Source of the DNA: Bacteroidota bacterium
Lineage (GTDB): Bacteria > Bacteroidota > Bacteroidia > SXHM01
Assembly (NCBI GenBank): GCA_947479755.1
Contig: CANKAM010000011.1
Span: forward strand, 20,488 to 84,487
Reading direction: 5' to 3'
Length of the DNA stretch: 64,000 nt
The notes under the pieces were generated by a model. That model worked only from the letters and a program-made list of their open reading frames with translations, searched no databases and had not been told where the DNA came from. Positions 4,643 through 64,000 of this stretch are shown here, piece by piece (positions within the stretch are counted from its first letter, which is position 1; each line of letters opens with the position of its first letter). Made by a program: the position numbers and the translations under genes.

Positions 4643-5476
4643 TTATGAACCCAAAATGTGCATTAATTCATGCACCTGACTATCCCACAAGAGTTGCGAT
4701 TCGTTTTCATCACCTTTCTCCACATAATCGGTAACAATAAGGGCAACCTCATTCGTAATTCCGTCAATTTTTATGCGAAATTCAAAAAAGCAATCTTTAG
4801 GTTGGGTAAGCCAACGGAAACGAACAAATTCATTATCCTCTTTTTCAATCAGAACAGCAGATTCTTCTGAACTATCCCATTTGAATGTGAACAGATTATC
4901 CATTGAATCAACATAATCTGCAAACCATGCAGAAAGCCCGCTGGCATTACTGACACTGCTGAAAAGTACACCTACAGATGAGCGTGTATAATATTCAAAC
5001 TGAACTTTTGTCCAACCGGGAACAATAGGATCAGGCTTAACTTCCGGAACTACTTTTTTAACCGGAGCAGCAAGTTTCTTCTTTACTACAGCAACCTGTT
5101 TTTTAGGTTCTGCAACCTTTTCAGGTGCTGCTGCAACCTGCTTTTTTGCGGGTGCAACAACCTTTTTAGTCGGAGCAGCAACTACCTTTTTCTTAGCAAC
5201 TGTAGCTTTTTTAACTGGTTTTGCAACTATTTTTTTCTTAGCAACTGCAACTTTCTTCGCTTGTTTAGCAACTACCTTTTTCTTAGGCTTAGGCTTAGCC
5301 ACTTTTTTAGCTGGCTTCGCAACCACCTTTTTCTTTGCAGGTGCTACTTTTTTCTTAGCTGCAGGAGCAACTTTCTTTTTCTGCGCTGGCAGTTTTTTCT
5401 TGCTTGCTACAACCTTTTTCTTTGCAGGTTTCACAGCTTTTTTCTTTGTAACTGCCGATGTCTTTTTCTTTTTCAT
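4643..5476 (-). CDS. Lys/Ala-rich histone-H1-like repeat protein with a C-terminal globular domain of unknown family, about 135 aa
   Basis: About 140-aa N-terminal region of KKKVVA/AKKKVAP repeats, encoded by tandem DNA repeats at 5040-5470. The ORF-track start at 5485 is a TTG; the first ATG is at 5476. C-terminal part (PGWTKVQFEYY...HELMHILGS) is non-repetitive. Confidence 0.6.
   Translation of the reverse strand: MKKKKTSAVTKKKAVKPAKKKVVASKKKLPAQKKKVAPAAKKKVAPAKKKVVAKPAKKVAKPKPKKKVVAKQAKKVAVAKKKIVAKPVKKATVAKKKVVAAPTKKVVAPAKKQVAAAPEKVAEPKKQVAVVKKKLAAPVKKVVPEVKPDPIVPGWTKVQFEYYTRSSVGVLFSSVSNASGLSAWFADYVDSMDNLFTFKWDSSEESAVLIEKEDNEFVRFRWLTQPKDCFFEFRIKIDGITNEVALIVTDYVEKGDENESQLLWDSQVHELMHILGS
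5040..5470. repeat. In-frame tandem DNA repeats (about 21-27 bp units) encoding the K/A-rich repeat region of the 4643..5476 protein
   Basis: Visible recurrence of gcaac(t/c)ttttt(c/t)ttagc(t/a)g / cttttt(t/c)gc(a/g)gg motifs, which also keep the opposite-strand frame open (shadow ORF 5261..5563). Confidence 0.7.
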
Positions 5477-30040: not shown

Positions 30041-30092
30041 TTAGCTGATGGTATGATTAGCTGATTAGCTGATGATATGATTAGCTAATGGT
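30041..30092. repeat. Left inverted-repeat flank (TTAGCTGAT iterations) of the four-helix-bundle gene cassette
   Basis: ttagctgatggtatgattagctgattagctgatgatatgattagctaatgg is the reverse-complement partner of 30481-30517. Confidence 0.6.
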
Positions 30093-30457
30093 TGTTTGAC
30101 ATTATTTTTTGATGTTCCAATTATTTTATTCAGGACTTTAGAAATTGATGTTAGCTTCACTATAAGTTCTGTAGGAGTAGGGTAATTTTCAGAATGTTTG
30201 CACAGTAATAACCAATACTCCGTTTCATCCGATTCTTTCAATGCAATTTTTATTTTATGAATAAAATCAGCTTTGCTTTCTGCATTCTGAGCTTCTTTCA
30301 CATTTGCTCCAATACTGGTTCCGCTTCTGAATAATTGCCTTGCAAGATTATATCTTTTTCTATTTTCCAATTCTTCAGTAAATGAAATAACAGAAAGCGA
30401 AAACTCAAATGTAAGTTTAACAATCAGGTTGTCCTTGTATTTAGGATTTTCAGACAT
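30065..30457 (-). CDS. Four-helix-bundle protein (23S rRNA intervening-sequence protein family)
   Basis: 130 aa, helical. Pattern ...ARQLFRSGTSIGANVKEAQNAESKADFIHKIKIALKESDETEYWLLLC is the family signature (GANIAEG...E...W-like). Confidence 0.7.
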   Translation of the reverse strand: MSENPKYKDNLIVKLTFEFSLSVISFTEELENRKRYNLARQLFRSGTSIGANVKEAQNAESKADFIHKIKIALKESDETEYWLLLCKHSENYPTPTELIVKLTSISKVLNKIIGTSKNNVKQPLANHIIS

Positions 30458-31723: not shown

Positions 31724-33196
31724 CTATAATTTCTTTTTCAGCCAGATAATCAGTTCCTCAAGCCCCAACAGGTTTTTGTTTTCGGGACGACTAAAGAGTT
31801 CTTCCAGTTTTGAAAGAAAGACTGCTTTTTGATTTTTTGACTTAATAAGCAGTGGGATATTTTCAAGAACAATTTGTTCCAGCTCATAGAGCTTATTGCC
31901 ATACTTCAGGCGGTCGCGGGTGTTGCGCACTTCATATTCAACAAGGTCGTGCTTGCCGGTTTGGTAAAGCAGAATAATTTTAAAGATGCCGGACATATCC
32001 CGCAAATCGGTTCGCACCTCGTGTTTGCGGTTGGCAGTTATAATGCTGTTAAAGCTTTGCATGGCCTCTGCATATTTTTCATTCAGAAAATAGGTGATGG
32101 CTATGTTATACATAAAGCCGGATTTGCGCATCGGGTTTATTGAATTGTCATATTGCTTCAGACCTTTTTCAATTTTTGGGTTTAGCTCCAGCGCCTTTTC
32201 AAACTGCCCGTTGTTCAGCATATATAGCTGCTGCAAAAAATATACTTCCCTGAAAAGAACTGCATTATCTCCCTTGCTGCCTCCTGAAATGCTTTCTATG
32301 CGGCTTATGATGTCATCAAAATCCAGCGGTGTTTTTGCTGTAATACTTTTTGTCAGCAGGTTCGCTAAATCCGAACGGTAGCGGATAATGTATTCCGTTT
32401 TCATTTGAGGATACATATCCCATAATTCTATTATTCTTTTCCGGTATTGAAAAGCTTTTACATAATCACCACATAGGTCGTGGTATGTTGAATATAAATG
32501 ATTAAATATAAGTTTAGCGCTGAAGCTGAGCGCATTGTTTTCATCACTGAGCAAGGGTTCCTGCATCAGTTTTTCAAGCTCTTCTTTTTTTTCGGAGGTT
32601 TTAAGCGTATGCAATTCTATGTACATAACCTGCACCTTATCTTTTATATAAGTTAGGCTGTCTTTATTTTCTATTTTTTTCAGCAGATATCTTTTCTCTC
32701 GATAAATTTCCTCTATCAATTTCCCCAGATTTACATAGGTGGAATTATTCAGCAATATCCGGTGGATGTTATTAATCTCCAGTAGCAAAAAAAGCTTTTC
32801 GTAATGCAGGGCAAGCGCCCGCGCCTTAACCACTAATTTAAGTGCCTGCTGATAAAGTTGCTTTTCGCGTAAAGAATCAATGGCTTCAATCAGGCGGTGC
32901 AGGCGACTGTTTACCGTTGTGCTGCTTTTATAAGCCACAAGGCTGTCCACCACCAGAGTGGATAAATTTGTTTTATGATACGCAAAGCGTTTTAGAAAAG
33001 CGGGATTTTTAAAAGAGGATTTTACTTCACTCTCTTTATATTCTTCCAGTCCTCTGATGAGTTTAAAGAGTTGAATGTATTCATCCCCTTCCTTAATACG
33101 GCTGCGGTTTATGTATTGAATAAAATAACCGGCCTCTGCCTTATTAAAACTTTTAACAAGGTTGAAAATTTCATCCGATGGTTGTTTTGTTTTCAT
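31724..33196 (-). CDS. Large all-helical cytoplasmic protein of unknown function (TPR-like)
   Basis: About 490 aa with no signal peptide, TM helix, NTPase or HTH motif. The first ATG at 33196 gives MKTKQPSDEI; the ORF-track start is TTG. Confidence 0.4.
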   Translation of the reverse strand: MKTKQPSDEIFNLVKSFNKAEAGYFIQYINRSRIKEGDEYIQLFKLIRGLEEYKESEVKSSFKNPAFLKRFAYHKTNLSTLVVDSLVAYKSSTTVNSRLHRLIEAIDSLREKQLYQQALKLVVKARALALHYEKLFLLLEINNIHRILLNNSTYVNLGKLIEEIYREKRYLLKKIENKDSLTYIKDKVQVMYIELHTLKTSEKKEELEKLMQEPLLSDENNALSFSAKLIFNHLYSTYHDLCGDYVKAFQYRKRIIELWDMYPQMKTEYIIRYRSDLANLLTKSITAKTPLDFDDIISRIESISGGSKGDNAVLFREVYFLQQLYMLNNGQFEKALELNPKIEKGLKQYDNSINPMRKSGFMYNIAITYFLNEKYAEAMQSFNSIITANRKHEVRTDLRDMSGIFKIILLYQTGKHDLVEYEVRNTRDRLKYGNKLYELEQIVLENIPLLIKSKNQKAVFLSKLEELFSRPENKNLLGLEELIIWLKKKL

Positions 33197-33325
33197 AATG
33201 ACCAAAGTCAAATTATTGCCTGCAAATCCGTTTTTGCACAGGTAAATTTATTGAAATATTTGCCGGCACAACAACCTGAGCACTATGTCAAAATTACTTT
33301 TATCATTTATGCCTGCCGCCACCCA

Positions 33326-33535
33326 TAATTTGCCGGCAAAGCCTGAGCGTGGGATGGCAAAAAGTCAGCCCGTGACGGCAAATTCTGGTGCAGGGACGGC
33401 AAATTCCCGAACAGTGACGGCACGGACTGAGGCCGGGAGGGCAAACCGCCACACCGGGAGAGCAAAAACTCAGCCCGTGATGGCAAAACCTCAGGCGGGG
33501 ATGGCAAAACCTCAGGCTGTGAGGGCAATGGGGCA
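33326..33535. repeat. Ten 21-bp tandem units in exact register (consensus GGCAAAnnnyCAGnCnGkGAn), bracketed by TTGCCGGCAA-type palindromes
   Basis: Units start at 33326, 33347, ..., 33515. Perfect 10-bp palindrome TTGCCGGCAA at 33321-33330, a 9/10 copy at 33260-33269, and TTGCCGCTAA at 33531-33540. Sits in the divergent region between the 31724..33196 and 33626..34369 genes. Confidence 0.7.
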
Positions 33536-33625
33536 GCATTTGCCGCTAAAAAGCACTCTTTTACGTTCATTTTATATATAAACCAATCAAACAATCAATA
33601 ATTAACCTAAAAAAAAACAGAAACC

Positions 33626-34369
33626 ATGGCAAAAGATTTTGTAAAAAGTAACGATGTACAATTTGTAGCACAACTTAACACCTTTAAAGCTAACCTGCCC
33701 TCTCATGCAATGTTATTTGGCTTAACACCTGCACAAATTGCTTCTGTGCAAGCCGATGCCGATTGGATGGCTTTTATAGTGCTGCGCAACAACGCTGCAC
33801 CCGGCTTTGCACAGGACTGGACAAAGCTAAAAGATCAGGTTCGCCACGGGGGCGATGGAAGTATTATTCCACCCTTCCCAACTCCACCGGATGTTGTTAC
33901 CCCACCAATGGGTACTATACAGCCCGATGTGGAAGGGCGTTTTCGCCAATTGGCAGCTCAACTGAAAGCAAACAGCAACTACAGCAAAGCTATTGGCGAA
34001 AACTTAGGTATTGAAGCAGATGAAACCAGCTTTGATGCCGGAAATTATAAACCCGAAGGCAGCGCAAAAGCGGTATTGAATGTGGTAACTATCAAGTTCA
34101 CTAAAAAAGGAGTGGATGGTCAGGCTATCTACAGCAAGGTAACAACAGGGGTGAGCACACTGCCCTCTACACCGGGCTCTCCGGCACCGGCTACGCTTAG
34201 TCAGTACACCAAAATAGCCATAGACTTCCATAGTCCTTATGTTGATAACCGTGCACTTACCATTGCCGGGCAGCCCGAACTGCGGGAATATTACCTGCGT
34301 GGTGTACTCAGTGATGCCGAGATTGGTGTACCCTCTGATATAATCAGAGTAATAGTGGGAACTATCTAA
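33626..34369 (+). CDS. Hypothetical cytoplasmic protein with a Pro/Thr-rich central segment (PPFPTPPDVVTPPMGTIQP)
   Basis: 247 aa. Good start context (aaaccATGgc). No signal peptide. No recognised family. Confidence 0.5.
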   Translation: MAKDFVKSNDVQFVAQLNTFKANLPSHAMLFGLTPAQIASVQADADWMAFIVLRNNAAPGFAQDWTKLKDQVRHGGDGSIIPPFPTPPDVVTPPMGTIQPDVEGRFRQLAAQLKANSNYSKAIGENLGIEADETSFDAGNYKPEGSAKAVLNVVTIKFTKKGVDGQAIYSKVTTGVSTLPSTPGSPAPATLSQYTKIAIDFHSPYVDNRALTIAGQPELREYYLRGVLSDAEIGVPSDIIRVIVGTI

Positions 34370-34373
34370 AGTA

Positions 34374-34409
34374 AAAATCCCTCTCGCCTTTGGCGAGGGG
34401 GATTTTTGT
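34374..34409 (+). terminator. Rho-independent terminator hairpin AAAATCCCTCTCGCC-TTT-GGCGAGGGGGATTTTTG
   Basis: GC-rich stem plus T-tract, 5 nt after the stop at 34369. Confidence 0.7.
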
Positions 34410-34461: not shown

Positions 34462-36438
34462 ATGAAAAAAATATTTACACTCTTAAGCCTCGCAGTTTGT
34501 ATGAATGCAACTGCGCAAACATGCTTTACAACTGCAAGTTATCCGGTAGGTGGCGCAACCACAACAATTGCTGTTGCAGATTTTAACAATGACGGACATC
34601 TTGATATTGTTGCATCAAATGATGGAGGGCCTGGAGGTTCTGTTTACATGTTACCCGGTACAGGAACAGGAACTTTCGGAACTGTTATTCTTGCTGTTGA
34701 TGGTGGTGATAGTTTATTTTCAGTTTCATCACATTCTATAAGCGCTTCTGATTTTAATGCAGATAGTAATGCAGACCTGGCCATAGCTACAGGTACTGAT
34801 GTAAAAGTTCTACTTGGTGATGGTACAGGTCATTTTGCTCCCCCAACTGTTCATGTGGTTGGCAGTTATCCTTATGCTGCATGCATAGCAGATTTTAACG
34901 GAGATGGTGACATGGATATAGCATCTGCAAATGATGGTAATGTATCTGTTTTGTTAGGAAACGGAGCAGGCAATTTCAGTTCCCATGTTGATTTTTCTGC
35001 CGGTCCTGAAATGTATGCTATAACAATCGGTGATTTTAACGGAGACGGAGATGTGGATTTGGCTGCAACCAGCAATGCCAATGGTGGCGGGCTTGATAGT
35101 GTATGGGTATTGCTTGGCAATGGAACTGGTGGTTTCGGAACAGCCGCAAAATATTTAGCAGGGGAAGGGCCATATTCGGTTTGCAGTTCAGACTTTAATG
35201 ATGATGGATTTGATGATATAGCCGTTGCCAATACCAATTCCCAAAATGTTTCTGTATTATTAAGTCAGGGAGTTTCAGGCATATTTTCTCCTGCTGAAAA
35301 TTTCACAACACTTCATACTCCTTTTTCAGTTGTCAGTGCTGATTTTAACGTTGATGGAATTCCTGACTTGGCTACCGGAGCCCAGGGAAATGATGTATCA
35401 GTATTGTTGGGTACTGATTCGGCCTACTTTGGACCACCCGCTCTTTTTTCCTGCCCGGGTTTTCCATGGGAAATTGCCACCGGTGATTTCAATGAAGATG
35501 GCAGACCTGACCTTGCAGCAGCAAGTCATGATGCCTCTTCTGTTAAAGTATTACTAAACGTTGAAGTAGTGAACTGCACAGGCTGTGCATTAAATAACGG
35601 AGTTACAGTTCCTGATATTTGCATGGTATCAACCGATAGTGCATCATACTATCAATACAATGTTATTATTTGGGATAATTCGCTTTATACCAATGTTGAC
35701 AGTTTTATTGTGTATAGAAAAGATGCAATTACCTCAACCTATTTACGTATAGGAGCAACAAGCAAAGATTCGTTAAGCCTGTTTGTTGATACACAATTCA
35801 ATATTGGCGGTCCCAATGGAGGAAATCCAATGTACTCAAGTTGGTTTTACAAACTGGCAATACGTGATACCTGCGGCAACATCGGTGAAAAAAGTCCATA
35901 CCATCAAACAATGTTCTTTCAGCAGAATGGTGCCAATTTTTCGTGGAATGCTTATACCGTTGAAAGCGGACAAACCAACCCTGTAACAGGTTATTCATTT
36001 TTAAGAGACGATAATAATAACGGAAACTGGAATGTGTTGGTAAATACGGTAGGTCTTTCCACCACTGATCCTGACTACGCAAATTATCCAAACGGAAATT
36101 GGCGCATAGATGCATTAGGTTTTAGTTGCACACCAACCAATAAAACCTATATGGTGGCACAAAGCAATCCTATTAAACCAATAGTTGCAGGCATAGAGCA
36201 GTTATCATTAAATAAGGTAATAGTCTACCCTAACCCAGCCACCAACACACTAACCATTGAAACAGAAAGTGGCAATAGCATTTACCAATTGCAAGATTTA
36301 ACAGGCAAGGTATTGTTAAGCGGCAGTGTAACAGCAACTAAGTTTAGTTTAGATATTAGCGCACTAAGCAAAGGCATTTATTTACTAAGCCTTATTGATG
36401 GCGAGCAGCAGGTAAACAGGAAGGTTGTGAAAGATTAG
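34462..36438 (+). CDS. FG-GAP/VCBS-repeat protein with a T9SS C-terminal sorting domain
   Basis: Signal peptide. At least eight DFN(G/N/D)DG..D(I/L)A calcium-binding FG-GAP-like repeats. CTD VIVYPNPATNTLTIET...NRKVVKD. Confidence 0.75.
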   Translation: MKKIFTLLSLAVCMNATAQTCFTTASYPVGGATTTIAVADFNNDGHLDIVASNDGGPGGSVYMLPGTGTGTFGTVILAVDGGDSLFSVSSHSISASDFNADSNADLAIATGTDVKVLLGDGTGHFAPPTVHVVGSYPYAACIADFNGDGDMDIASANDGNVSVLLGNGAGNFSSHVDFSAGPEMYAITIGDFNGDGDVDLAATSNANGGGLDSVWVLLGNGTGGFGTAAKYLAGEGPYSVCSSDFNDDGFDDIAVANTNSQNVSVLLSQGVSGIFSPAENFTTLHTPFSVVSADFNVDGIPDLATGAQGNDVSVLLGTDSAYFGPPALFSCPGFPWEIATGDFNEDGRPDLAAASHDASSVKVLLNVEVVNCTGCALNNGVTVPDICMVSTDSASYYQYNVIIWDNSLYTNVDSFIVYRKDAITSTYLRIGATSKDSLSLFVDTQFNIGGPNGGNPMYSSWFYKLAIRDTCGNIGEKSPYHQTMFFQQNGANFSWNAYTVESGQTNPVTGYSFLRDDNNNGNWNVLVNTVGLSTTDPDYANYPNGNWRIDALGFSCTPTNKTYMVAQSNPIKPIVAGIEQLSLNKVIVYPNPATNTLTIETESGNSIYQLQDLTGKVLLSGSVTATKFSLDISALSKGIYLLSLIDGEQQVNRKVVKD

Positions 36439-36451
36439 GGGAGTAGTAGTT

Positions 36452-36494
36452 AAAACAAAAGTCCCTCGCCTAAGGCGAGGGACTTTTGTTTTTC
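36452..36494 (+). terminator. Bidirectional-capable terminator with a 19-bp perfect stem, AAAACAAAAGTCCCTCGCC-TAAG-GGCGAGGGACTTTTGTTTT
   Basis: Perfect inverted repeat with A- and T-tracts on both sides. Shares the CCCTCGCC...GGCGAGGG core with the 34374 terminator. Confidence 0.75.
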
Positions 36495-36691
36495 TGAATT
36501 TGAAACAATTAAACATTCAAGCGGTTGCCACATAGCTACGCCTGAGATGAACTGTGGTAATACCCCTGCAAAAAACTGACCACAAGACCATAACATAATT
36601 AACTTTACCAACCGTAAAACTTAAAAGTGCGGGCGGACTCTTTGGCGACACTGACTCGACCTTTCATTTGGAATAATAAGAAATAAATACC

Positions 36692-37888
36692 ATGAAAATT
36701 TTTATTATTATTTTATTTTTGCTGAGTTCCTTCCAAGCGTTTGCTCAAATAGATTGGGTTGTATATAATACTTCCAATTCTGGAATTCCTCACAATGTAG
36801 TTGAGGACATTACGTTTGATGCCAGTGGTAATATTTGGGTAGCAACCTATGGCGGTGTGGGGAAATTCGATGGGGCAAATTGGACTGCATATACCACCGC
36901 AAATTCTATTCTACCAAGTAACGTATGCTATTCGATTAAAGCTGATGCTGATACTATTTGGATTGGCTCAGTATATGGTTTAATAAAATTTGATGGCACG
37001 AATTGGACAAGTTATCCTTATGGATATGTGGTTTCAATGGCATTTGAAGAGAATGGAACGAAATGGTTTGGCGGGTATCAGACAGGATTAGTAAAATACG
37101 ATGGAAGTACTTGGACCCGATATGATGCTTCCAACTCTGATCTTACAGACAGTACCTATTATTCAATTAATATTGATAGTGTGAATAATAAATGGTTTGC
37201 TACCCCAGAGGGGGTATTCAAATTTGATGATATCGATTGGACACAATTTACTATAGGAAATTCTGATATACCCGGGAATATTATTGTAGCTCTTAGTATT
37301 GATGCAAATGATACGAAATGGATTGGGGTTGCAGAATTGGGCATGGGGCAATTTGATGATGTTATCTGGATCGGCTATGACACCCTCAATTCGGGGTTGC
37401 CTTCAAATTATGTGAATGCAGAAATTGCTTTTGATGAGAATGGTGATAAATGGATTGGTACTTCTACCAAAGGACTTGCATTTTTTGATAATACCACATG
37501 GACTACCTTTAATATGACGAATTCGGAATTACCATCAAATGCAGTCGAAGCAGTTTCAGTAGATAATGTAGGTAATAAATGGATAGGAACCTATGGTGAA
37601 GGTTTAGCGGTGTATCGTGAAAATGGGGTTATTCTATCAAACAATGATATTGCAAAGTCACAACCTGCAATTTATGTTTATCCTAATCCTGCAACTAATT
37701 ACTCTACAGTTGTAACTTCATTTAAGGGCACTTACCAATTGCAAGATATAACCGGCAAGGTATTGTTAACCGGCAGCGTAACTGCAACCAAGTTTAGTTT
37801 AGATATAAGCGCACTCAGCAAAGGCATTTATTTACTAAGCCTTTTTGATGGTGAGCAGCAGGTGAACAGGAAGGTGGTAAAAGAGTAA
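36692..37888 (+). CDS. Two-component-regulator-propeller-like repeat protein (NWT.Y...NS.LPSN.V..I..D..GN.WIGT) with a T9SS C-terminal sorting domain
   Basis: Signal peptide. At least seven repeats of about 45 aa with W-T-Y/F and WIGT motifs. The CTD is near-identical, at the DNA level too, to that of the preceding gene. Confidence 0.65.
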   Translation: MKIFIIILFLLSSFQAFAQIDWVVYNTSNSGIPHNVVEDITFDASGNIWVATYGGVGKFDGANWTAYTTANSILPSNVCYSIKADADTIWIGSVYGLIKFDGTNWTSYPYGYVVSMAFEENGTKWFGGYQTGLVKYDGSTWTRYDASNSDLTDSTYYSINIDSVNNKWFATPEGVFKFDDIDWTQFTIGNSDIPGNIIVALSIDANDTKWIGVAELGMGQFDDVIWIGYDTLNSGLPSNYVNAEIAFDENGDKWIGTSTKGLAFFDNTTWTTFNMTNSELPSNAVEAVSVDNVGNKWIGTYGEGLAVYRENGVILSNNDIAKSQPAIYVYPNPATNYSTVVTSFKGTYQLQDITGKVLLTGSVTATKFSLDISALSKGIYLLSLFDGEQQVNRKVVKE

Positions 37889-61932: not shown

Positions 61933-62664
61933 ATGGATTACTTTGACAGAGACATGCAGCGCGTGATGAAGAGGATGAGGGAGAAGCTGAACCTTGGCAA
62001 CATAAGCCGGGGTAATGACCTTCATTTGCTGGAAGAGTTAGCTGCCACCTTTAATTTCTGCATTGTTTTACACCATCCCGGTTCGGTTGATGCCTTCTTT
62101 GCAAGCAGGCGTTTCTTTAATTTGCTTGGCAAAAAGAAAGGTGCAAGTGAGTATGTGTATGCCGATTATAATGAGGCATTTAAGCAAAGCAGCAATATGG
62201 CTTATCATGCCTTGTTTCTGCAACACTTCAGCACCCCTGCTGCCGACACCCACCGAGGCAGTTATAAGTTTAAAGATGTTAAGGCAAAGGTATTCTGGCT
62301 CAACTCCTGCTCCTGCCTTATGGATACCGGAACGGGTAACAAACCCATTATACTTACCCTGCTGTATCAGGCACAGCAGACCATGAGCACCGACCACCAG
62401 ATACTGAATGACCTTATCAGAGGTCTGGACTTAGATGAGCTGATGAGTAAAATCAATAAACTAAGCGACCGCGAACTGGAGGTATTTGAATACCTGGCAC
62501 AAGGCACCGATAAAAAAACGGCAAGTGATGAATTATTCATTTCGGAAGATACATTTATTACCCACCGTAAAAACCTGAGAAAGAAAATAGGCTCGCCCTA
62601 TAACGACAAACTGTTGCTCAGTTACTTATCCAACAAGTATTACCGCCTTTTACACAACCTGTAA
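61933..62664 (+). CDS. LuxR-family (FixJ/NarL-type HTH) transcriptional regulator with an N-terminal domain of unknown function
   Basis: C-terminal LSDRELEVFEYLAQGTDKKTASDELFISEDTFITHRKNLRKKIG is a LuxR-type HTH. No receiver-domain Asp pocket was recognised in the N-terminal 170 aa. Confidence 0.75.
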   Translation: MDYFDRDMQRVMKRMREKLNLGNISRGNDLHLLEELAATFNFCIVLHHPGSVDAFFASRRFFNLLGKKKGASEYVYADYNEAFKQSSNMAYHALFLQHFSTPAADTHRGSYKFKDVKAKVFWLNSCSCLMDTGTGNKPIILTLLYQAQQTMSTDHQILNDLIRGLDLDELMSKINKLSDRELEVFEYLAQGTDKKTASDELFISEDTFITHRKNLRKKIGSPYNDKLLLSYLSNKYYRLLHNL

Positions 62665-62756: not shown

Positions 62757-62834
62757 GCGCTGTCAATAAAACTCACCCCCTACCCCTCTCTTTGAAATAA
62801 AGAGAGGGGAGAATGGAAAAGCAATTGACAGCGC
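62757..62834. promoter_or_regulatory. Nested inverted repeat: outer GCGCTGTCAAT/ATTGACAGCGC, inner CCCCTCTCTTT-GAAAT-AAAGAGAGGGG (62784-62809)
   Basis: A perfect 11-bp outer arm pair encloses a perfect 11-bp inner hairpin. Could be a terminator for the LuxR gene or a structured regulatory RNA/DNA element. Confidence 0.5.
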
Positions 62835-62982
62835 TCTTTGACATATTGAAAAACAACCGAAGACTTTAATTACAAGTCGTAAGAGCTTAACTGCTCAACC
62901 AAATACCTTGTTTACACTACACAATGCCTTAAACGGGCAGCAAAATACCTTACGGGCAGCACAGAAAGCTTTAATTGATGCA

Positions 62983-63213
62983 CACAAGACCTTAAATGCT
63001 GAACTTAAGACCTTAAGCGGTGAACTTAAGACCTTAAATCAAAGACTTAATTCATTAAATGCAAGACTTAAGACCTTAAACGCTGAACTTAAAACCTTAA
63101 CTGCAAGACTTAAGATCTTAAGCGCTGAACGCAAGACCTTAAGTGCAAGGTTTAAGACCTTAAATGCTGTACGCATGACCTTAACGCTTAAACGCAAGGC
63201 ATTTTATCAGTAA
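62983..63213 (+). repeat. Eleven 21-bp tandem units (core CTTAAGACCTTAAnnGnnGAA, each containing the inverted pair TTAAG-AC-CTTAA). Open in one frame as a leucine-zipper heptad array (LNAELKT x10) that starts at TTG 62908.
   Basis: Units start at 62983, 63004, ..., 63193 in exact register. Translation gives LxxxLxx heptads with L at the a/d positions. No ATG start; only a TTG at 62908. The ORF track lists it as a 101-aa ORF. Confidence 0.6.
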
Positions 63214-63347
63214 ACAGTAAACAATTGACAGTTGATATGGACTATGAACTGTGGACTATTGACTGTGACTACCGACCATGAATTACTAATTTAATTAAAC
63301 AACATAACTAAATAATAACTAATAACTAACAACTAATAACTAAACAA
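63214..63347. repeat. AT-rich low-complexity spacer: TGGACTAT(G/T)(A/G)ACTG x2, then (A)TAACTAA heptamer-like iterations
   Basis: tggactatgaactgtggactattgactgtgactac ... aactaaataataactaataactaacaactaataactaaacaac, immediately upstream of the ATG at 63348. Confidence 0.5.
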
Positions 63348-64000
63348 CATGGCAAACTATAAAATTCGTTGCAGACTAAATTATCACATCCTTAAAATTG
63401 ATGAGATAGATTTATTTGCCGTTATTATCCGTAACGGTATTTACAATAATCCGCTTATATTTTTAACACCTCCAATTCTTCAGGCTGCTTTTCAGCTGCT
63501 GATTGATGACTTTATTACCAAACGTGCAGCTTACAAAGCAGGGGGCAGTGCACAAAAAGGGCCTTATAACGAAGCTAAAATAGCATTGATGGCAGCCCTT
63601 GACAGCCTGTCGGCCTACGTTGACACGGTGGCACTGGGCAATGCCAATACCATTACCCTTGCAGGTTTTGTACCTACCAAGGGAAGCTCAACCCCTATTA
63701 ACCCGCCTACCCAGCCGCAGGGGGCAACCCTTAGCCGTGGCCTGCCGGGCGAGCTGTATGCTGATTGCGCAGCCGCTGCAGGGGTTGACGGTTGGGGCGG
63801 ACTGCTGATAGCCAACAACCCTATTCCCGAGGGTATGGGTATCAATGAGTTGGGGCAGATAGTATCATTTTACAATTCAACTCCTATGCCTATTCCGGGG
63901 CCTATACCTGCACCGGGCAGCATTCAGTTTATTCAGGATTTGAACAAAGCCCGCAGAAAAAAATTTACAGGTCTGCAAATAGGTGTTACCTACTACTTCT
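63348..64000 (+). CDS. Hypothetical cytoplasmic protein with Pro-rich segments (PINPPTQPQG, PMPIPGPIPAPG); 3' partial, runs off the window
   Basis: Open frame of 217 codons from ATG 63348 with no stop before the window end. Absent from the ORF track only because it lacks a stop in the window. Composition is protein-like. The overlapping track ORFs 63599..63808 and 63615..63845 are shadows. Confidence 0.5.

Follow-up and report, generated by a model that had tools for sequence, protein, structure and literature searches.

Plasmid iterons are direct repeats of the kind found in the R6K gamma origin, which has seven 22-bp repeats together with operators made of inverted half-iterons. Partition centromeres may overlap their own promoter, as do parC of plasmid R1 (10 x 11 bp) and sopC of F (12 x 43 bp). 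Phased A-tracts upstream of the Clostridium perfringens plc gene are an example of upstream curved DNA, and the 21-bp promoter repeats of SV40 and HTLV-1, which are eukaryotic or viral, are present in three copies that bind a fixed factor (Sp1 and CREB/Tax, respectively). In Bordetella, phosphorylated BvgA (BvgA~P) occupies the ptx promoter as six head-to-head dimers at 22-bp spacing, on one helical face, the last of them abutting the -35 element (PMC7250471). Here we analyse an array of ten 21-bp units that precedes a gene for a 247-amino-acid protein in a 64,000-nucleotide stretch of DNA from a Bacteroidota bacterium (assembly GCA_947479755.1, contig CANKAM010000011.1, positions 20,488 to 84,487); this stretch is called the window, and positions are counted from its first letter. 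We propose that the array is a phase-locked cis-regulatory operator or activator array, acting as double-stranded DNA and abutting a promoter, and we put the probability of this reading at roughly one half. The locus is one instance of a coupling between arrays and gene families that extends across phyla, which is not visible from the letters of the window alone. The array and its surroundings have the following features:

33216 to 33269: copies of the palindrome with one mismatch, TTGCCTGCAA at 33216 and TTGCCGGCAC at 33260, in the conserved divergent intergenic region.
33330 to 33339: 5' cap, the perfect 10-bp palindrome TTGCCGGCAA, in which an inverted half-site TTGCC abuts the first GGCAA.
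33335 to 33544, no strand: array of ten 21-bp units, head-to-tail.
33540 to 33544: 3' cap, an inverted half-site TTGCC (TTGCCGCTAA at 33540) that takes the place of the GKGAn block in unit 10 (GGCAA-N11-TTGCC).
33570 to 33584, + strand: AT-rich box TTTTATATATAAACC, a candidate core-promoter (-10/-7-like) element.
33602 to 33612, + strand: leader motif TTAACCTAAAA (consensus TTAACCCTTAAAA), 15-25 nt before the ATG.
33626 to 34369, + strand: gene for a 247-amino-acid protein of an uncharacterised family, with an N-terminal helical bundle, a Pro-rich linker and a C-terminal FN3 domain.

The units follow each other in a strict register. Identity at lag 21 over 33335-33544 is 0.63, compared to 0.275 +/- 0.031 in shuffled sequences (z = 11.4), and it is 0.30 at both lag 20 and lag 22. 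When the whole 64 kb were scanned for lag-21 identity, this array and a second one near the end of the window gave the top two 210-bp windows. The G+C content of the array is 61% as opposed to 40% in the window. An original prediction, made from the letters alone, had described ten units in perfect 21-bp register, and both the lag analysis and the listing of the units bear this out. Its coordinates were in part too low, however: the units begin at 33335 and not at 33326 (a difference of 9 bp), the perfect palindrome lies at 33330-33339 and not at 33321, and the degenerate 3' copy is at 33540 instead of 33531, while the degenerate copy at 33260 had been placed correctly.

Each unit is built from a core, G(G/T)GAnGGCAA, that spans the unit junction, from a weaker T(C/G)A (unit positions 10-12) and from some 10 bp of variable spacer. 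The secondary T(C/G)A is about one helical turn (about 10.5 bp) away from the 10-bp core, so that the contacts would fall on one face of the helix. The core GNGANGGCAAA is found six times in the 64 kb, every time inside the array (0.78 copies expected). Most units open with GGCAA, as had been predicted for all of them; units 5, 7 and 10 depart either from GGCAA or from the 3' core. The palindrome TTGCCGGCAA has a single exact copy in the window, and with at most one mismatch there are six matches, three of which fall within 33216-33339. The function of the copies at 33216 and 33260 is doubtful because neither is kept in L110, one of the relatives' loci (numbered with L throughout) that were taken from genome and metagenome collections and by exact look-up.

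The orthologous loci, defined by protein identity, are L026 (100%), L027-29 (85%), L030 (82%) and L110 (82%). The window and all of these have exactly ten colinear units without insertions or deletions. The 5' cap TTGCC|GGCAA and the 3' cap TTGCC are kept in four orthologues (window, L027, L030 and L110), and the 3' cap is present in L111 as well. The consensus pooled from 40 orthologous units, GGCAAnnnctsAgncnGKGAn, agrees with the GGCAAAnnnyCAGnCnGkGAn that had been derived from the window. Between orthologues, no changes occur at unit positions 3, 4, 17 and 20 and one each at positions 2 and 19, whereas each of positions 6-16 differs in 4-10 of the ten units and position 21 also changes. 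The flanks are nearly invariant: window and L027 agree at 134/135 positions upstream and at 46/46 downstream. Judged from these substitutions, the 10-bp core is under purifying selection and the spacers drift freely. In L110 the units have GGCAAC where the window has GGCAAA, i.e. the A-tract is lost and the core and both caps are kept; what is conserved is therefore the core, not A-tract bending. A similar picture is seen in L059, L060 and L064, where the half-site TTAGTCC is kept every 21 bp, full palindromes GGACCAAGCTTGGTCC are found in alternate units and the spacers vary.

The situation is different among more distant relatives. From about 75% protein identity downwards the units have a different sequence, in which traces of relatedness can still be seen (L001 and L031 vs. 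the window; L052, L070 and L075). The locus L004, whose protein is 43% identical, shows synteny with the window (NusB, Leu dehydrogenase) while its unit is unrelated. This turnover is what one would expect of a neutral or expanding minisatellite, a contingency locus hitch-hiking with the gene, whose period is kept by unequal crossing-over that preserves unit length; the original prediction had named an expanding minisatellite as one possibility and had proposed to compare unit copy numbers. The super-periods of 42, 63 and 84 bp found in other loci, which would be block duplications, the fact that L037 and L041 are one unit apart and the breaking of assemblies at the arrays (contigs often end there, e.g. 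in L104 and L108) also agree with it. On the other hand, the number of units is constant at ten among the orthologues, three samples have identical arrays, and a one-unit difference was found in only one other orthologous pair; copy number shifts by whole units (13 in L037, 12 in L041). A minisatellite also fits poorly with a core that evolves more slowly than the spacers between almost invariant flanks, with a period that is essentially never 20 or 22 and a unit number that clusters around ten, and with the presence of arrays at 25-30% protein identity, across phyla, and before a second, unrelated gene family. We consider this explanation improbable.

The coupling of array and gene is best seen when many loci are compared. 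Tandem Repeats Finder (TRF) was run on 65 non-redundant upstream regions, and autocorrelation was calculated for the 600 bp upstream of the start codon. The best three autocorrelation lags were 21, 42 and 63 in about 60 loci. TRF returned periods of 21 (64 hits), 42 (30), 63 (17), 84 (13) and 105 bp (3), and no other period more than twice. An array with a period of 21, 42, 63 or 84 bp lies just upstream of the gene in 56 of the 65 loci, so the spacing corresponds to an integral number of helical turns, as in phased operators, and in the window it is exactly 21 bp. The arrays have a median of 10.3 units (interquartile range 9.1-12.4) and end at a median distance of 79 bp from the ATG (81 bp in the window). 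The hosts belong to Bacteroidota, Planctomycetota, Armatimonadota (including Fimbriimonadales) and other phyla; they include a cultured isolate, Flavobacterium sp. SUN046 (locus L107), with 12 units of TTCCCnnGGGAAAAATAATTT. No neighbouring gene was found to be conserved by all-against-all BLAST, hence the module consists of the array and the gene. The flanks of L001-L025, about 200 kb, contain just one further 21-bp array, which is short (3.3 copies) and located in L016.

The 247-amino-acid protein has no sequence match in Pfam, NCBIfam, PHROGs, PADLOC or PDB; its C-terminal half shows the seven-strand beta-sandwich fold by which FN3 domains are recognised. Its family has 3045 representatives of 50%-identity clusters (E <= 1e-3), all of about 230 amino acids, and the members that were retrieved with an annotation are all called 'hypothetical protein', none being named otherwise. 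The second array of the window precedes a gene of similar kind. The prediction that a similar architecture recurs at 62.9-63.4 kb proved right: this array is real, with a 21/42-bp period, about ten units and z = 12.9. The genes concerned are:

61933 to 62664, + strand: regulator of the LuxR/GerE family with a helix-turn-helix (HTH) domain, directly upstream of the second array (Pfam GerE, E = 3.3e-12).
62971 to 63196, no strand: second array, about ten 21-bp units with a 42-bp super-period, detected by TRF and lag-21 identity.
63349 to 64000, + strand: gene that follows the second array and is truncated at the end of the window; its product belongs to a different family, of about 240 amino acids, whose C-terminus has an FN3 signature.

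The two array-associated protein families show no detectable homology (hhalign probability 0.2%, and similarity neither by BLAST nor by HMM). Members of the second family are of the same size as those of the first, and 7 of 13 have weak, sub-threshold fn3 matches (best E = 0.003). The second-family loci L103 and L105 have 21/42-bp arrays upstream too; no LuxR gene was found upstream of the member in L103. Each unit of the second array carries an inverted repeat, TTAAG-AC-CTTAA. In the literature on 21-bp tandem repeats in bacteria and the family libraries that we searched, no counterpart is described. We take the locus to belong to a widespread and apparently undescribed class, in which an array of about ten units in strict 21-bp phase is fused to the promoter of genes whose small products are of the helical+FN3 kind.

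The flanks of the array suggest where this promoter might be. The AT-rich box TTTTATATATAAACC is invariant in the window, L027, L030, L110 and L111, and similar boxes are found in L001, L002, L004, L008 and L033. It lies 27-28 bp from the 3' cap in all orthologues. Insertions resembling miniature inverted-repeat transposable elements (MITEs) in L030 and L111 sit downstream of the box and never between the box and the array, so the length of the leader is flexible. For both gene families, the leader motif TTAACCCTTAAAA is present in the majority of Bacteroidota loci. Where phyla rely on Shine-Dalgarno (SD) sequences, it becomes a hairpin GCCCTTAAAAGGGC directly before AAGGAG, and the order there is an extended-10-like TGCTAAAAA directly after the array, then the hairpin, then the SD. 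The original prediction had taken the locus for an iterated binding-site array that controls the downstream gene from a divergent promoter region; the conserved core, the caps, the distance of 27-28 bp to the box and the strict 21-bp period speak in favour of such a helically phased array.

Based on these data we propose the following model. The ten binding units, spaced by exactly two helical turns, would span 210 bp from about 28 bp upstream of TTTTATATATAAACC, each offering the 10-bp core and the weaker T(C/G)A one turn away, with inverted TTGCC half-sites capping both ends. A sequence-specific DNA-binding protein may fill the units cooperatively, as a one-sided filament, and its promoter-proximal copy could touch or occlude RNA polymerase, resulting in a steep on/off switching of the 33626 gene. 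In the wider class, the same order of a ten-unit array, promoter, short leader and helical+FN3 gene would be found before thousands of relatives, and only the 21-bp phase and the approximate number of units are conserved, the recognised sequence turning over with the locus.

A candidate for the binding protein in this clade is encoded divergently from the array:

31724 to 33211, - strand: gene for a 495-amino-acid TPR-containing protein related to the BT_2802 (RusR) family (NCBIfam NF058569).

The match to NF058569 has E = 5.9e-33 and covers residues 12-475 of 495, with 114.6 bits as against a curated cut-off of 550, so the protein is best regarded as a distant RusR homologue and not as an equivalog. 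DNA-binding motifs have been predicted in RusR itself, which is a candidate positive regulator of transcription (bioRxiv 10.1101/574913). A RusR-like gene adjoins every GGCAA-type locus and is not adjacent in the relatives with other arrays, which makes this protein our candidate binder or regulator of the array in this clade. Other regulator genes are found next to other arrays, namely Response_reg+GerE in L037 and L041, LytTR in L105 and a response regulator with a HisKA_3 kinase in L107.

It is useful to compare this model with the promoters controlled by BvgA (Pfha and Pptx), the analogue with the best documentation. In both cases, the units are two helical turns apart, on one face of the DNA, and begin far upstream; the last one abuts the -35 element in the BvgA promoters, and here it lies near a candidate core promoter. 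In the BvgA promoters individually weak sites act cooperatively, and the genes adjoining the second array, L037 and L041 belong to the same GerE family of regulators. There are differences, however. The BvgA promoters have 3-6 units as opposed to about ten, and the units described here are true tandem repeats with an exact 21-bp period. The BvgA sites are inverted heptads, whereas the units of the window are direct half-sites, and the sequence recognised here differs in each lineage. Finally, BvgA sites belong to the regulon of one regulator, while the arrays are tied to their target gene families across phyla and their binder is putative. The SV40 and HTLV-1 repeats are similar in that 21-bp repeats with transcription-factor sites lie just upstream of a core promoter; they have no common descent with the present arrays.

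Several observations weigh against the operator model. First, most loci have no regulator gene adjoining the array, the neighbours being unrelated enzymes or surface proteins; the factors would therefore have to be locus-specific and encoded elsewhere, or the gene product itself binds. The product is near-neutral or acidic, however (isoelectric point about 5-6), and has no recognisable DNA-binding fold. Secondly, the array of L008, which belongs to a 41%-identical paralogue in another genome, is closer to the window unit than is the array beside the 75%-identical orthologue of that same genome, which is awkward for a simple co-evolution of binder and site. Thirdly, Bacteroidetes sigma-A motifs (TTTG...TAnnTTTG) are mostly absent on either side of the arrays in the loci scanned; a sigma-70 promoter scan is uninformative for Bacteroidota. 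Because such canonical motifs are missing between array and gene in most loci, the position of the promoter is something that we infer. L005 and L006 have, in our own reading of the sequence, a promoter-like motif upstream of the array, and a few arrays extend to within 19-29 bp of the ATG, where they must overlap the promoter or be partly transcribed. Finally, the two strands are weakly asymmetric, with an excess of stop codons on the minus strand. Among 46 arrays (L001-L102), 19 have no open minus-strand frame, compared to 7.5 +/- 2.1 expected, and on the + strand CA exceeds TG, TCA exceeds TGA, ATC exceeds GAT and ACA exceeds TGT, with stops slightly depleted.

Some of these points would be accommodated if the array were part of a transcript, either of a long 5' leader or of an RNA of its own, in which short hairpins or motifs at 21-nt intervals bind an RNA-binding protein, possibly the gene's own product, that controls stability or translation. 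The short distance between array and ATG in some loci and the motif upstream of the array in L005 and L006 agree with this possibility, as do the depletion of stops on the + strand with their enrichment on the minus strand and the conserved leader motif or hairpin near the ribosome-binding site. Moreover, many units contain short inverted repeats, some with compensatory variants. However, over 45 arrays the fold z-scores are the same on the two strands (-4.2 and -4.4), neither strand is favoured (the + strand is more stable in only 20/45), and the array of the window does not fold better than shuffles on either strand (z = -0.4 and -1.3); its units have no internal inverted repeat. Mismatches of the G.T type in inverted-repeat columns, which as G.U would be tolerated in RNA, are no commoner than A.C (38 vs. 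31), and neither the whole window nor the locus has an Rfam match at the gathering threshold or at E <= 5. The arrays show a 2.6-fold enrichment of perfect inverted repeats, which is greatest for those with 0-2 nt between the arms and peaks at a 2-bp spacer (34 vs. 6). Such a spacer is too short for a hairpin loop and typical of dimer operators, and therefore fits double-stranded DNA. A strict 21-nt period, moreover, would serve no evident purpose in an RNA, and we think that an RNA-level function is unlikely.

A further possibility is that the array encodes a peptide, since 21 bp correspond to seven codons, i.e. a heptad. The three stop-free open reading frames (ORFs) reported in the original prediction exist at the coordinates it gave (33285-33581, 33303-33539 and 33307-33594). 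Its view that they are artefacts without a credible start was half right: the substitution pattern of the 98-amino-acid ORF at 33285-33581 is non-coding, but the ORF has an ATG and is publicly called, at the same length in orthologues. At least one + frame is open in 42 of 46 arrays, and the second array would encode LKTLNAE heptads. On the other hand, four arrays have no open + frame, and the substitutions cluster in a contiguous 11-bp spacer. The variable columns are distributed over the codon positions as 24/15/19 and 36/26/40, with no third-position excess, therefore there is no coding signature. The LKTLNAE heptads are not reproduced in relatives, the units of L103 giving, in our own translation, unrelated peptides that do not form coiled coils. 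For these reasons the heptad peptide was rejected, and of all the explanations it is the one to which we give least credence. Public gene callers annotate an ORF of 98-111 amino acids across the array in the window, L026, L027, L030 and L110, and similar artefactual ORFs over many loci.

Could the arrays act by shape alone? According to such an explanation, the array is a sequence-agnostic structural element, curved or phase-dependent, that works directly or through nucleoid proteins, perhaps as a sensor of temperature or supercoiling, and only its period and length matter. This would explain why the arrays have no common motif (the best 4-mers are recurrent in only 7 of 52 arrays) and share only period and unit number, and why they lie directly upstream of the promoter region. 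In a wedge model, the numbers of which are provisional, the array of the window is the most curved of all, with an end-to-end to contour ratio of 0.48 vs. 0.91 after column permutation, and for 12 of 51 arrays (2 expected) the value lies in the lowest 4% of those obtained by permuting the same array. The plc-type curved DNA is similar in that a helically phased repeat is found right upstream of a promoter and, provisionally, strong curvature is predicted for the array of the window. However, curvature is not general: many arrays are no more curved than their permutations, or even straighter, and the A/T profiles contain no excess of a 10.5-bp harmonic. The L110 orthologue, in which the 10-bp core and both caps outlast the A-tract, points to selection on a specific sequence, and so does the enrichment of inverted repeats and half-sites. 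A purely structural role is, in our opinion, not likely.

To a further reading, which involves protein binding, we give a rather low probability. The array may represent a novel type of control element in bacteria, a 'DNA ruler' that is passed on with its gene across phyla and whose information lies in phase (exactly two turns) and number (about ten) and not in a shared sequence. It would then template a one-sided nucleoprotein filament or ring, possibly of the helical+FN3 product itself or of a private, rapidly co-evolving partner, so that each paralogue has an orthogonal address.

The formal resemblance to replication or partition sites is strong, and the original prediction had mentioned an iteron-like site. 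As in plasmid iterons, direct repeats about two turns apart and of locus-specific sequence lie beside a conserved gene, and an inverted half-site is found at the edge (cf. TTGCCGGCAA). As in parC and sopC, about ten tandem units lie over or upstream of the promoter of the adjacent gene, the sequences are diverse between systems, and cooperative coating to a filament or ring can be envisaged. In such a scheme the adjacent gene's product would bind the array, and four of 34 family members indeed have a very weak, below-threshold match to PF05119 (small terminase; E >= 0.019). Nevertheless, the loci are chromosomal, several per genome, and syntenic (NusB and Leu dehydrogenase flank both the window array and L004), and the family gave no hits in plasmid, phage and IMG/VR collections. 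No Rep, ParA/ParB, ParM-like or terminase genes were found near the loci examined. The iteron comparison also fails on the Rep-like winged-helix protein, the DnaA boxes and the AT-rich unwinding element, none of which are present here. The parC/sopC comparison fails on the ParA/ParM partner, on the 21-bp unit and on the product, which is a helical bundle with FN3 and contains neither a winged-helix nor a ribbon-helix-helix (RHH) fold, in contrast to the RHH/HTH proteins ParR and ParB. We therefore think a replication or partition site very improbable. The arrays also do not resemble clustered regularly interspaced short palindromic repeats (CRISPR), which have repeats of at least about 23 nt, spacers of at least about 26 nt and cas genes: here the period is 21 bp in total, made up of a core of about 10 bp and a spacer of about 11 bp, and no cas gene is present at the locus.

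A few further features of the loci should be mentioned. Behind the 33626 gene there is an inverted repeat:

34379 to 34408, + strand: hairpin CCCTCTCGCC...GGCGAGGGGG followed by a T-run, read directly from the sequence 3' of the gene.

The terminator scan reported this inverted repeat on the - strand only, not on the + strand; we read the hairpin and T-run as an intrinsic terminator, and the 33626 gene would then be monocistronic, unlike the operon for a centromere-binding protein and an NTPase that adjoins a partition centromere. The leader motif also occurs as CCCTTAAAA, 15-25 nt before the start codon, in the window (33602-33612 and 63330-63345) and in the last 60 nt ahead of the ATG in L044, L050, L051, L069 and L074, and TTGTGCTAAAAA, resembling an extended -10 element, precedes the hairpin GCCCTTAAAAGGGC. 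MITE-like insertions with CACAGATT/CACATAG repeats are located between the AT-rich box and a TTAACC motif in L030 (about 2040-2110) and L111 (105-235), and upstream of the array in L033 (840-925). Several relatives from the Bacteroidia have a (GA)n microsatellite at a distance of 40-60 bp upstream of the array, namely L001 (3660-3675), L002 (1-34), L004 (3552-3600) and L031 (2607-2624); L033 has (GAGTTTCC)5 instead (1075-1110), and no tract of this type occurs in the window.

Upstream of the second array there is a conserved inverted repeat, GCGCTGTCAAT...ATTGACAGCGC (62757-62835 in the window, about 331-372 in L103). A strong inner hairpin, CCCCTCTCTTTgaaatAAAGAGAGGGG (62779-62805), separates its two arms in the window; in L103 only 13 nt lie between them. 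This feature may be an operator, or else a small insertion within an operator. The third-best lag-21 signal of the window (5177-5353) comes from coding 45/51-bp repeats, Lys/Ala-rich and on the minus strand, which are unrelated to the arrays. Between nusB and the gene for the Leu/Glu-type dehydrogenase there is a free-standing gene for a 23S rRNA-intervening-sequence protein (30065-30457; PF05635, E = 1e-22). The 33626 gene is followed (34462-37888) by genes for two proteins sorted by the type IX secretion system (T9SS), one with FG-GAP repeats and Por_Secre_tail and one propeller-like of 398 amino acids, whose C-terminal 60 or so residues are near-identical; T9SS cargo genes are also found downstream in L107, L110 and L030.

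In practical terms, the coupling provides a rule of prediction: relatives of the 33626 gene nearly always have a 21-bp array of about ten units just upstream, and the 64-kb window contains just two such arrays, each of them in front of a gene of this sort. Annotators should be aware that spurious ORFs of about 100 amino acids are routinely called across the arrays, and that metagenome assemblies often break there. If the arrays are indeed phased operators, they would exceed in length and regularity all other natural examples known from bacteria. They would also constitute a natural set of mutually orthogonal array sequences, useful for studies of cooperative, switch-like regulation, and the co-evolution of DNA-binding specificity and site under a fixed geometry would become testable.

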